Source: Klebsiella phage phi1_146029. From it: a DNA stretch of 64,000 nt. This document shows, in pieces, positions 28,073 to 30,576 of the stretch (its first letter is position 1; every line of letters starts with the position of its first letter). The notes beneath the pieces are model-generated. The model worked only from the letters and a program-made list of their open reading frames with translations. It searched no databases and was not told where the DNA came from. The position numbers and the translations under genes are program-made. The stretch lies in the sequence record PP889479.1; one strand, written 5' to 3'.

Positions 28073-28927
28073 ATGTTTCGTTTGAGATTGAACGACCAAG
28101 ATGTGTTCTACAAACACTTCACCTTTCCAGGCGGTGAAGAACATATCAAGATTCAAAAGGCGGGTATCCCTGTTGGTAAAATCCAGACAGTGGTAATTGA
28201 CGCCCACATTAAATCGTCAGCAGATTTCATTGAGCTGGCACTGTTGGTGAACGCCGTGCGCGGCCTGGGTAATGTCGACCGACTGACAACATTTCATGCT
28301 TATATCCCTTATTTTCCATATGCCCGTCAGGATCGTCATTGCGACTTTGGTGAACCTCTTTCGGTGAAGTGGGCAGCAGAGTTCATCAATAGTATGAACT
28401 TTGACCGTGTGGCGATCAAAGACCCTCACAGCCATGTTGTGTCTTCTCTGATCAACAACGTCCATGTTGTCCCGCAAGATTACATTGCTCGCCAGTACCT
28501 GGGATGGTTCATTCGGGGCAACAACGCTGTGTTGGTAGCTCCCGACGGCGGCGCGGCGAAGAAGACTGAAACCCTCAGCCTATCGCTGGATGGCGTTCCT
28601 GTTGTCTACGGACATAAGAACCGCGACACCAAGACGGGCGAGATCATTGGGGTGAGTATTACAAACCCTGAACTGATCAAAGACCGCTATCTGGTTGTGG
28701 TAGATGATATCTGTGACGGCGGGCGAACGTTTGTTGAGCTGGGCAAAGAGCTTCAGAAGCACGAGCCTAAGCACATGACCCTCTTCGTTACCCACGGCAT
28801 TTTCAGCAAAGGTCTCTCTGTGTTCGACGGGATCTACGATGCTGTGTATGCCGACACTGTCTGGTGGGAGAACATCACCGCCGACGGTCTTCCATTCAAA
28901 ACTGAAAATACAGGACGTGTAAAATGA
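28073..28927 (+). CDS. PRPP-synthetase-family pyrophosphokinase; candidate Adps (ADP-ribose pyrophosphate synthetase) of the NARP1 pathway
   Basis: Prs motifs: 'IPYFPYARQDRH' (compare Prs 'IPYFGYARQDRR') and PRPP-binding loop 'LVVVDDICDGGRT' (Prs 'VLVDDMIDTGGT'). 284 aa, shorter than cellular Prs. The stop overlaps the start of the NAMPT-like gene. Confidence 0.65.
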   Translation: MFRLRLNDQDVFYKHFTFPGGEEHIKIQKAGIPVGKIQTVVIDAHIKSSADFIELALLVNAVRGLGNVDRLTTFHAYIPYFPYARQDRHCDFGEPLSVKWAAEFINSMNFDRVAIKDPHSHVVSSLINNVHVVPQDYIARQYLGWFIRGNNAVLVAPDGGAAKKTETLSLSLDGVPVVYGHKNRDTKTGEIIGVSITNPELIKDRYLVVVDDICDGGRTFVELGKELQKHEPKHMTLFVTHGIFSKGLSVFDGIYDAVYADTVWWENITADGLPFKTENTGRVK

Positions 28928-30576
28928 GCATGCGCCACTTAGATCCAATCCATGCAATCGACTTCTACAAATCAGGGCACATCTATCAATTCCCTGAAGG
29001 TAGCGAGCTGGTGTTCTCCAACGGAACTCCACGCTCCAACAAACTGTTCAACTCCCACCTGCCGAAGAACGGCGTGGTGGTCTGGGGTATCCAGGGATTC
29101 ATGACCTGGTTCCACGAACTGTTTGATGAAGCGTTCTTCCAGCGCCCAAAGGCCAAGGTGCTGAAGAAGTATGCCCGCCGAATGAACAAAGTTCTCGGAC
29201 CAGGCCGCGTTGGGACAGAGCATATCGAAGCCCTGCACGACCTCGGCTACCTGCCTATCGAAGTCCGCGCTCTACCCGAAGGCACCATGTGCCCGTATGG
29301 TGTTCCGGTATATGTGATGTTCAACACATTGCCGGAGTTCTACTGGCTGACCAACTATCTGGAGACGGTGTTCAGCTCTGAGATCTGGAAGCCGATGACG
29401 AACGCAACCATTGCCCTGCACTACAAGGCGCTGATGGTGAAAGCCGCTATCGCTACAGGCGTGTCGCCGGACCATTGGTTCATCGACTACCAAGGCCACG
29501 ACTTCTCCTTCCGTGGTATGAGCGGGTGGCATGACGCGGCGTCTTCCGGTTCTGGCCATCTGGTGTTCTTCAAAGGCACCGACACCAACCCTGCCCTGGA
29601 CTTCGTTGAAGAGTATTATGGCGCGGATATCGATGAAGACTATGTCGTTGCTGGCTCTGTTGCAGCCACCGAACACGCCGTGATGTGCATGGGCACGAAG
29701 GATGGCGAGTTCGAAACCTTCGAGCGCCTGATTTCTAAAGTCTATCCGGACGGGATTGTCAGTATCGTGTCTGATGCATGGGACTACTGGCAGGTCATCG
29801 ACGACTATCTGCCGCGCCTCAAAGATATCATCATGGCGCGTAATGGCAAAGTTGTGATCCGTCCCGACTCTGGTGACCCGGTGCATATCGTCGGTGGTTA
29901 TCGCGTCGAAGAATTTTGCAATGAGCAGGATTTTTACGATAACGACCCACGTGAAGAAACTGAAGTTATCTATCTCAAAGAAGAAAACAGATACCATATT
30001 CTGGAACAATATCAGTTTAATCAGATCGGGGAAGAGATTTCTCGTTCAGAAGCGGTCGGTTCTATCCAGCGCCTATGGGAGATCTTTGGCGGAACCCAGA
30101 CCGAAACGGGCCACTTCCTGTTGGATGAGCACATCGGCCTGATCTACGGTGACTCCATTACCCTGAGCCGTGAAGATCAGATCTTTGCTCGTCTGGTTGA
30201 ACGGAATTTCGCTTCCATCAACGTAGTGTTCGGTATCGGTTCCTATACTTACCAGATGAACACCCGTGATAGTACCGGGACGGCGGTGAAAGCAACGGCT
30301 GGGAAGGTCAACGGTGAATTCCGTGAGATTTTCAAAGAACCGAAGACTGACAAAGGTGGTACGAAGAAATCTGCGCGTGGTTTCCTTAAAGTCATTAAAG
30401 ACTCTCAGGGTAAACTAGTGTTGGTTGATGGTATCACGTTTGACCAGGTGCAAGACGCAGATAATCAGCACCAACTGGTTTACCGTGATGGCAAGTTCTT
30501 CAATACTCAGACTCTGGAAGAAGCGCGTTTTCGTGCCGCTCCTCTGGTGGAAGAATTGGCATCACAAATATGTTGA
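28924..30576 (+). CDS. Nicotinamide phosphoribosyltransferase family (NadV/NAMPT-like); candidate Namat of NARP1
   Basis: N-terminus 'IDFYKSGHIYQFPEGSELVF' matches the NAMPT 'DSYK..H..QYP' signature. 550 aa. Translationally coupled to the Prs-like gene (ATGA). Confidence 0.7.
   Translation: MSMRHLDPIHAIDFYKSGHIYQFPEGSELVFSNGTPRSNKLFNSHLPKNGVVVWGIQGFMTWFHELFDEAFFQRPKAKVLKKYARRMNKVLGPGRVGTEHIEALHDLGYLPIEVRALPEGTMCPYGVPVYVMFNTLPEFYWLTNYLETVFSSEIWKPMTNATIALHYKALMVKAAIATGVSPDHWFIDYQGHDFSFRGMSGWHDAASSGSGHLVFFKGTDTNPALDFVEEYYGADIDEDYVVAGSVAATEHAVMCMGTKDGEFETFERLISKVYPDGIVSIVSDAWDYWQVIDDYLPRLKDIIMARNGKVVIRPDSGDPVHIVGGYRVEEFCNEQDFYDNDPREETEVIYLKEENRYHILEQYQFNQIGEEISRSEAVGSIQRLWEIFGGTQTETGHFLLDEHIGLIYGDSITLSREDQIFARLVERNFASINVVFGIGSYTYQMNTRDSTGTAVKATAGKVNGEFREIFKEPKTDKGGTKKSARGFLKVIKDSQGKLVLVDGITFDQVQDADNQHQLVYRDGKFFNTQTLEEARFRAAPLVEELASQIC

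Follow-up and report, generated by a model that had tools for sequence, protein, structure and literature searches.

A probable NARP1 (Adps-Namat) operon in Klebsiella phage phi1_146029 and its variable genomic surroundings

Described NARP1 operons and the phi1_146029 gene pair

NARP1, a phage pathway in which the enzymes Adps and Namat rebuild NAD+ from ADP-ribose (ADPR) and nicotinamide, was discovered by Osterman et al. (bioRxiv 10.1101/2024.02.11.579819, then Nature 2024). Here we compare it with a pair of overlapping genes in a 64,000-nucleotide stretch of Klebsiella phage phi1_146029 (sequence record PP889479.1), the whole of which we call the window. One gene encodes a protein of the Prs family, to which the synthetases of phosphoribosyl pyrophosphate (PRPP) belong, and the other a protein of the Nampt (nicotinamide phosphoribosyltransferase) family. 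On the strength of sequence comparison, the pair is very probably the core two-gene NARP1 operon of Klebsiella Taipeivirus (Ackermannviridae).

The Adps of Bacillus phage SPbetaL1 converts ADPR and ATP into ADPR pyrophosphate (ADPR-PP) and gave no product in a Prs-activity control assay; its catalytic lysine is K162, and the K162A mutant is inactive (10.1101/2024.02.11.579819). Namat then forms NAD+ from ADPR-PP and nicotinamide and prefers ADPR-PP to PRPP (10.1101/2024.02.11.579819), although homologous Namats can still form nicotinamide mononucleotide (NMN) from PRPP in vitro (10.1101/2024.02.11.579819; PMC12774641). The Prs-like/Nampt-like operon of Escherichia phage Bas63 is active against SIR2-HerA, also when the host lacks pncC and nadR. 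The same survey counted NARP1 in 859 phages (4.3%), with a Namat neighbour present for 97% of Adps-clade genes; NARP1 and NARP2 were found together in no phage, and a phage NMN adenylyltransferase (Nmnat) accompanied PRPP-using phage Nampts in 94% of cases (10.1101/2024.02.11.579819). The Adps and Namat of Mycobacterium phage DyoEdafos are also active in biochemical assays.

Structures of SPbetaL1 Namat were solved by Lan et al. (PMC12774641), who described a selectivity clamp made of a loop (SCL, with R40) and a helix motif (SCH, with F392 and Y396). The SCH consensus is GSX-phi-X-phi-X-phi-TRD with an aromatic X at positions 3 and 7, and the adenine-stacking residue of the SCL is either an Arg as third residue, or a Lys or Tyr followed by a stacking residue. 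SPbetaL1 double mutants of the clamp lose the synthesis of NAD+ driven by ADPR-PP but keep that of NMN (PMC12774641).

For the phi1_146029 pair we infer substrates, products and an anti-defence phenotype by homology to SPbetaL1, Bas63 and DyoEdafos. Under attack by an NAD+-depleting defence whose SIR2, TIR or SEFIR NADase splits NAD+ into ADPR and nicotinamide (type I Thoeris, DSR1/2 and SIR2-HerA among them), Adps would move pyrophosphate from ATP onto the terminal ribose of ADPR, and Namat would exchange the pyrophosphate of the resulting ADPR-PP for nicotinamide. NAD+ would thus be regained directly, and neither NMN as an intermediate nor an Nmnat would be needed. ADPR rather than ribose-5-phosphate would then be the Adps substrate in the Taipeivirus lineage. 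The locus alone should not recycle cyclic ADPR (cADPR) signals.

Family and clade of the two proteins

The first gene, adps, encodes a putative ADPR pyrophosphate synthetase of 284 aa (positions 28073..28927, plus strand; assigned from its open reading frame (ORF), family profiles and identity with a protein of Klebsiella phage Magnus). The second, namat, encodes a putative nicotinamide ADP-ribose transferase of 550 aa (28924..30576, plus strand; assigned from its ORF, family profiles and clade). A first-pass annotation, made from the sequence alone, had described these ORFs as a Prs-like and a Nampt-like gene joined by an ATGA overlap and had proposed them as a NARP1 candidate. Their coordinates, strand, sizes and families are borne out by Pfam, PHROGs and NCBIfam. 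Reading positions 28924-28927 confirms the overlap, in which the adps stop codon TGA (28925-28927) and the namat ATG (28924-28926) fall within four shared nucleotides, and namat is translationally coupled to adps through it. The two motifs quoted at that stage are likewise found in the translations: the PRPP loop VVDDICDGGRT at residues 209-219 of the 284-aa protein, and IDFYKSGH..QFP at residues 12-24 of the 550-aa protein.

Pfam places PF00156 (Pribosyltran) and PF13793 (Pribosyltran_N) on the 284-aa protein and PF04095 (NAPRTase family, E 7.5e-32) on the 550-aa protein, which correspond in PHROGs to phrog_619 (E 6e-91) and phrog_448 (E 6e-194), respectively. The 550-aa protein also matches NCBIfam NF006629 with 474 bits, and both family assignments lie far beyond chance. 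A further profile, phrog_12872 (547 positions, labelled 'nicotinamide phosphoribosyl transferase'), aligns through its positions 1-222 with the window Adps and through its positions 219-547 with residues 226-549 of the window Namat; it appears to have been built from Adps-Namat deletion-fusion or mis-called proteins.

Table S1 of Osterman et al. holds a Klebsiella phage Magnus protein with 100% identity to the window Adps and a Menlow protein with 99.6%, each flagged there as 'Namat within 10 genes: Yes'. The pairing that we took to define NARP1 was the same, a Namat within 10 genes of an Adps, with adjacent Prs- and Nampt-family genes in the same orientation. The protein misses every NCBIfam cutoff for Prs, scoring 106.5 against the 113 of TIGR01251 and 50-95 against the 296-536 of the equivalog models. 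In phmmer comparisons it scores 188 bits with the JohannJBalmer Adps, 129 with that of Bas63, 80 with that of SPbetaL1 and 65 with that of DyoEdafos, versus 56 bits with E. coli Prs (the query sequence agreed with 4s2u) and at most 67 bits with the best solved Prs.

Lys182 of the window Adps (codon 28616-28618), which lies in GHKNRDTKTGEI, aligns with K162 of SPbetaL1 in GHKQRNFHTGEI. A [DE]PHS motif and a K-x-R-[DN]-x-x-TG-x-I loop are common to the window Adps and all three validated Adps proteins, and the ATP-binding and PRPP-loop residues of Prs are kept. The class-I Prs motifs DLHAxQIQGFF and DKRR are absent from the window Adps and from all 120 of its best homologues among 5.8 billion proteins; these homologues are all 249-306 aa long. 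The window protein, at 284 aa versus 315 aa for Prs, lacks the C-terminal extension of about 30 aa found in class-I Prs. By NCBIfam thresholds, signatures and length alike it is not a canonical class-I Prs, and it is placed in the Adps clade, separate from cellular Prs; our own tree has a single Prs outgroup.

In phmmer searches the window Namat scores 455 bits with the solved chains 9w5w/9w5x, which we took as SPbetaL1 Namat since their aligned residues are numbered as in the SPbetaL1 Namat of PMC12774641; it scores 357 bits with 9ke8 and about 179 with human and mouse Nampt. With blastp the scores are 430 bits for SPbetaL1 Namat and 404 for Bas63 Namat versus 138 for human NAMPT (query sequence checked and confirmed) and 135 for the Nampt of a T4-like Klebsiella phage. 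A tblastn search of 50,697 phage records gave a bimodal distribution of identities. The Namat-type group at 36-47% holds Felixounavirus, Vequintavirus, Staphylococcus K-like phages, ICP1 and mycobacteriophages, and the group at 24-27% consists of the Nampt of T4-like and KVP40-like phages. A neighbour-joining tree places the window protein within the clade of the SPbetaL1, Bas63 and DyoEdafos Namats, apart from human NAMPT and the Nampt of Klebsiella phage VAC13; it thus belongs to the Adps-associated Namat clade and not to the Nmnat-associated Nampt clade.

All published core residues are kept in the window Namat (D13, Y15, F194, R197, D220, R313, D315, G409, D410, T447, R448 and D449, compared with D13, Y15, F189, R192, D215, R306, D308, G360, D361, T398, R399 and D400 of SPbetaL1). 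By alignment, the SCH motif is G439-S-Y-T-Y-Q-M445-N-T-R-D449 (30238..30270, plus strand), in which the three phi positions are T, Q and N and the third and fifth positions are Tyr441 and Tyr443, in agreement with the Namat pattern; genuine Nampt carries GGGLLQxxTRD in its place. The SCL, as defined in PMC12774641 and located by alignment to the SPbetaL1 and Bas63 Namats rather than from a ligand-bound dimer structure, comprises residues 38-50, SNKLFNSHLPKNG (29035..29073, plus strand). Its third residue is Lys40, an allowed type that is also found in Bas63, and Phe42 is conserved. Alignments also place a variable insertion at about residues 326-377 (29899..30054, plus strand), after the ribose-binding loop RPDSGDP. 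The length inserted at this site is about 64 aa in the window and about 99 aa in Bas63, with a range of 64-99 aa among the Namats of phages of Gram-negative hosts, versus about 22 aa in SPbetaL1 and DyoEdafos and about 10 aa in Nampt. The insertion is poorly conserved even against Kuttervirus allotria, with which the remainder of Namat is 92% identical.

Of the validated operons, that of Bas63 (Escherichia phage JohannRWettstein, Felixounavirus; genes 79-80), which was validated genetically, resembles the window pair in gene order, Adps then Namat. Its Adps (37% identity) shares the DDICDGGRT loop and the DPHS motif, and its Namat (42% identity) also has an SCL of the Lys type and the motif GSYTYQ-x-x-TRD, with a large insertion placed, as in the window, after RPDSGDP. 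The two operons differ in phage family, in genomic neighbourhood and in the spacing of the genes, which lie 45 nt apart in Bas63 and overlap in the window. The biochemically characterised pair of SPbetaL1 (genes 190-191) overlaps as the window pair does, and its Namat is 44% identical. Its Adps is only 33% identical, with the PRPP loop DDLSSFGGT instead of DDICDGGRT, and its Namat has a short SCL with Arg40, no large insertion, and Phe and Tyr at SCH positions 3 and 7, unlike the window. Adps-Namat pairing is kept in Kuttervirus allotria, Bas63, SPbetaL1, DyoEdafos and three of our comparison loci (L008, L009 and L010).

Much closer relatives are found within the Ackermannviridae. The whole cassette is present at 97.5-98.9% nucleotide identity in more than 20 Klebsiella phage records, including the Taipeiviruses Magnus, Menlow, 0507-KN2-1, Madison and Croc_ER14, and the Madison Namat is 99.8% identical to that of the window. 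In Salmonella Kutterviruses the cassette is about 88% identical in nucleotide sequence, and Dickeya, Shigella and Escherichia relatives match as well; the cassette is known from relatives in Kuttervirus, Limestonevirus and Agtrevirus. The Taipeivirus cassette and its relatives are listed in Table S1 of Osterman et al., and a 2024 review of the Ackermannviridae (PMC11721090) notes the variable presence of NAMPT and RPPK genes, with a reference to Osterman et al. on how NAD+ depletion is evaded; our literature search found no paper that names NARP1 alongside Ackermannviridae, Taipeivirus or Kuttervirus. The system is already known and the lineage already catalogued, and there is nothing new in the core finding, because Table S1 holds the identical Adps and the review draws the link to NAD+ depletion. 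Residual interest lies in the dynamics of the genomic island, in a truncated RyDEP-like gene and in the non-aromatic clamp positions, all described below.

NARP1 is recognisable by standard anti-defence annotation, and the value of the assignment is for annotation and phage therapy, since GenBank records of therapeutic-candidate Klebsiella phages call the two products 'ribose-phosphate pyrophosphokinase' and 'nicotinamide phosphoribosyltransferase'. Identification as Adps and Namat predicts that such phages resist NAD+-depleting Klebsiella defences of the SIR2, TIR and SEFIR types.

Conventional salvage and donor specificity

The main alternative is a conventional salvage route, in which a PRPP synthetase would supply an NMN-making Nampt, host NadR or NadD would finish the synthesis, and the phage would gain an NAD+ boost with or without a host defence. 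We consider it quite unlikely. The Pfam and GenBank names fit it, as do the conserved ATP-binding and PRPP-loop residues, and several observations weigh against NARP1. The similarity of the window Adps to the assayed enzymes of SPbetaL1 and DyoEdafos is no higher than that to genuine Prs, so its placement in the Adps clade depends on intermediate sequences, the phylogeny already published and the pairing of the genes. The archaeal class-III Prs 4twb, a true PRPP synthase, also has the Adps-type motifs (EPH..., EKERDRTTGEV). These motifs are therefore insufficient as a test, and we dropped the pair [DE]PHS and K-x-R-D-x-x-TG-x-I as a sufficient diagnostic of Adps versus Prs. In addition, because homologous Namats retain NMN synthesis from PRPP in vitro, host NadR or NadD may support a degree of conventional salvage.

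Against conventional salvage stand the absence of product in the Prs-activity control of SPbetaL1 Adps and the function of the Bas63 operon in a host without pncC and nadR. The window proteins belong to the clades of Adps and Namat, the Namat carries the clamp motif, the Adps lies under all curated Prs thresholds, and the phage Nmnat that partners 94% of PRPP-using phage Nampts is missing here. The last point could be followed beyond the window, as the window, combined with the loci L004 and L005 of phage Magnus, covers a Magnus-like genome from end to end, with window base 1 at Magnus position 48,683 and the last base at about 115,028. In a motif-level screen (not a full scan with hidden Markov models), no stop-to-stop segment of at least 60 aa in the whole Magnus-like genome contained the NMN adenylyltransferase motifs GxFxPxHxGH or ISSTxxR, nor did any contain a Nudix box, even in a loose form. 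No NMN adenylyltransferase or Nudix gene is annotated in Menlow or Magnus either. The first-pass annotation had noted that the window holds no such gene; the statement is correct and now extends to the Magnus-like whole genome, where the phage NMN adenylyltransferase that would complete a NadV-NatV pathway was looked for and not found. A phage-encoded NadV-NatV route is thus very unlikely.

NARP2 (Nampt and Nmnat, as in Vibrio phage KVP40) and genuine Nampt share with the window the Nampt fold, the catalytic core and NAD+ as end product. Human NAMPT and the Nampt of the T4-like Klebsiella phage VAC13 are only 27-33% identical to the window Namat (27% for that of VAC13) and lack the SCH motif; no Nmnat is annotated close to the VAC13 gene. 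NARP2 has an Nmnat, and the window pair has a Prs-like partner instead; the locus departs from NARP2 both in this respect, genome-wide, and in that its Nampt-family protein does not belong to the PRPP-preferring clade. NARP1 is accordingly supported over the plain Prs/NadV (NARP2-type) salvage that the first-pass annotation had argued against, by the identity with Table S1, the Namat clade and SCH motif, the lack of NMN adenylyltransferase and Nudix genes, and the purifying selection described below. Alignment with characterised Adps and Namat versus Prs and NadV, which had been proposed as a check, also favours NARP1, with the catalytic Lys and the Namat core kept and an SCH of Namat type.

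Two positions of the clamp also count against a standard NARP1 Namat. SCH position 7 is the non-aromatic Met445 where SPbetaL1 has Tyr396 and Bas63 Tyr494, and Leu41 follows Lys40 where Bas63 has the stacking Trp43. Such a partly de-aromatised adenine clamp would suit a NARP1 of relaxed specificity, whose Namat would use ADPR-PP and PRPP efficiently and would serve general NAD+ supply as well as counter-defence, and the SPbetaL1 clamp double mutants, which lose NAD+ and keep NMN synthesis, point the same way. We nevertheless judge this reading very improbable, given that the SCH retains Tyr441, Tyr443 and the overall Namat pattern, that the partner is still of Adps type, and that dN/dS is as low as 0.03. 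Position 7 is also Met in Kuttervirus and, in the part of the catalogue covered, in two other Namat entries, and it is His in the active DyoEdafos Namat; the motif counts in that part of the catalogue are 85 GSYTYQY, 22 GSYTYQH and 2 GSYTYQM.

Cassette maintenance, accessory genes and the surrounding island

Both genes are under strong purifying selection. In comparison with Kuttervirus allotria, Adps has a dN/dS of 0.03 and Namat one of 0.11; with L008, a more distant, Ackermannviridae-like metagenomic contig of 156 kb, the values are 0.15-0.16. The GC content of the cassette is 50-51%, the same as that of the core flanking genes, and we rejected the idea that it is compositionally foreign. 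These data bear on a further explanation, namely that the genes form an accessory cassette that is decaying or no longer functional and is heading for loss. This has a precedent in the Escherichia phage RPN242 (Aglimvirinae; locus L002), where positions 3797-4133 hold only fragments, the adps promoter region and its first 50-90 or so codons being fused to namat codons 372-413. As the island is otherwise syntenic, this decayed copy is direct evidence of cassette loss within the Ackermannviridae. The cassette is also absent from the island of Kuttervirus bering and sits in a variable, repeat-bounded region. In the window, by contrast with RPN242, both ORFs are intact and every catalytic residue is kept, and together with the near-identity of the locus in more than 20 Klebsiella phage records and dN/dS values of 0.03-0.16 this makes decay extremely unlikely.

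Putative expression signals upstream of adps (28036..28065, plus strand, from reading the sequence) consist of a perfect TATAAT at 28036-28041 without a good -35 box and a Shine-Dalgarno-like GGGG run at 28062-28065, 7 nt 5' of the adps ATG. A sigma-70 consensus scan upstream of adps called no convincing promoter. The region 28012-28220 is conserved at 83% in the decayed RPN242 copy.

An imperfect direct repeat of about 80 bp, located by repeat search and pairwise alignment, brackets the cassette. The upstream copy (27939..28018, plus strand) comprises the last 11 or so codons of a 124-aa gene (27600-27974) and a terminator hairpin at 27997-28018, within which a terminator-like site was called at 28003-28016. 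The downstream copy (30566..30646, plus strand) comprises the last Namat codons, the Namat stop and a second terminator hairpin at 30625-30646, and the matched parts are 32 nt at 97% and 22 nt at 95%. In RPN242, which lacks the intact cassette, the junction between the 3' end of the 124-aa gene and a DUF3268 gene matches the downstream copy of the window, which suggests that the cassette was inserted or relocated by recombination.

The cassette neighbours encode a MazG-like protein, a 5-hydroxymethyldeoxyuridine (5-hmdU) DNA kinase, a DUF8224-type protein of 678 aa, the 124-aa protein, a DUF3268 zinc-finger protein, a gp49_66-family protein of 251 aa, a protein of 118 aa and a vWA-like protein of 732 aa. 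Between Namat and the 251-aa gene stands the DUF3268 gene (30654-31040, 128 aa). Most Taipeiviruses have it; Menlow does not, and only 92 bp separate Namat from the 251-aa gene there. In Kuttervirus and RPN242 the DUF3268 gene stands upstream of the cassette position. The order in Kuttervirus allotria is the 124-aa gene, DUF3268, the gp49_66 gene, Adps and Namat, versus the 124-aa gene, Adps, Namat, DUF3268 and the gp49_66 gene in the window. The 251-aa and 118-aa genes (31041-32217) have GC contents of 36.8% and 39.2% and third-position values (GC3) of 35-40%, below the 47% GC of the window as a whole and the 50-52% of the genes nearby, which suggests that they were acquired later than the NARP1 cassette.

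The 251-aa protein (31041-31796) is homologous to fusions of gp49_66 and RyR domains, with 40% identity (E 4e-56) to fusions of 290-296 aa (L008:3933-4823 and L012:4495-5367). In L008 the fusion gene lies directly upstream of Adps, and its C-terminus aligns with RyDEP, the cADPR glycosidase of DyoEdafos, including H75, W78, H100 and D117. DyoEdafos combines the core genes with RyDEP, and the window has a relative of the RyR fusion two genes downstream of its own core genes. The window and Menlow versions, however, end before the segment that bears the four catalytic residues. Pfam RyR (PF02026) gave no match in the 251-aa protein even at E values up to 10, and tblastn found no remnant of the catalytic segment downstream of the gene. 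Because that segment is entirely absent, the published criteria make the protein a truncated relative rather than a functional RyDEP. Klebsiella phage KpS110 and many Kutterviruses carry the fusion at full length, and truncated forms are found in the NARP1 carriers allotria, Se-F and Magnus; L008 has both a full-length fusion and NARP1.

In the NARP1-AP variant of Vibrio phage Gary, the core genes are accompanied by Adpp, a Macro-domain phosphatase of ADPR-1''-P. Pfam found no Macro domain in the four genes on either side of the window cassette, where it reported only HMUDK_hel, DUF3268 and Phage_gp49_66; the source paper of NARP1-AP used HHpred, which is more sensitive than Pfam, and looked for a Macro (Poa1p-like) gene within two genes of the operon. 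With no Macro domain among its neighbours, the locus is a core NARP1 and not NARP1-AP. We looked among the cassette neighbours for accessory genes of the RyR, Macro or phosphatase kind, and no functional one was found. Since there is only the truncated RyDEP-like gene and no Macro-domain ADPR-1''-P phosphatase, the cassette should not rescue the phage from aRES, a defence that occurs in K. pneumoniae and to which continued sensitivity is predicted.

A broader idea is that the island whose ends are the genes for the 124-aa protein and the vWA-like 732-aa protein is a recombination hot-spot in Ackermannviridae, in which repeats of gene ends and terminators shuffle NAD-centred counter-defence modules (NARP1 and the fusions of gp49_66 with RyDEP-like domains), and that the Taipeivirus and Kuttervirus Namat, with its Leu41, Met445 and fast-evolving insert of about 64 aa, has a donor specificity or regulation unlike that of the characterised enzymes. 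Taken as a whole this is unlikely.

A few genes upstream of the cassette, the 5-hmdU DNA kinase (PF18723, 23969-25189, Pfam E 5e-81) and the MazG-like pyrophosphatase (23031-23897) represent a set for thymidine hypermodification and nucleotide metabolism that is typical of Ackermannviridae and unrelated to NARP1.

A bacterial Adps-Namat pair was found on a Motilimonas chromosomal contig (L010, positions 6978-10462), with an Adps 44% identical to that of the window. It lies near glmU/glmS-like and haem uptake genes and is divergent from a gene for an NrtR-type regulator (NUDIX and WHD_NrtR domains), a family that is ADPR-responsive. This arrangement hints at an ADPR-induced recycling of NAD+ in bacteria.

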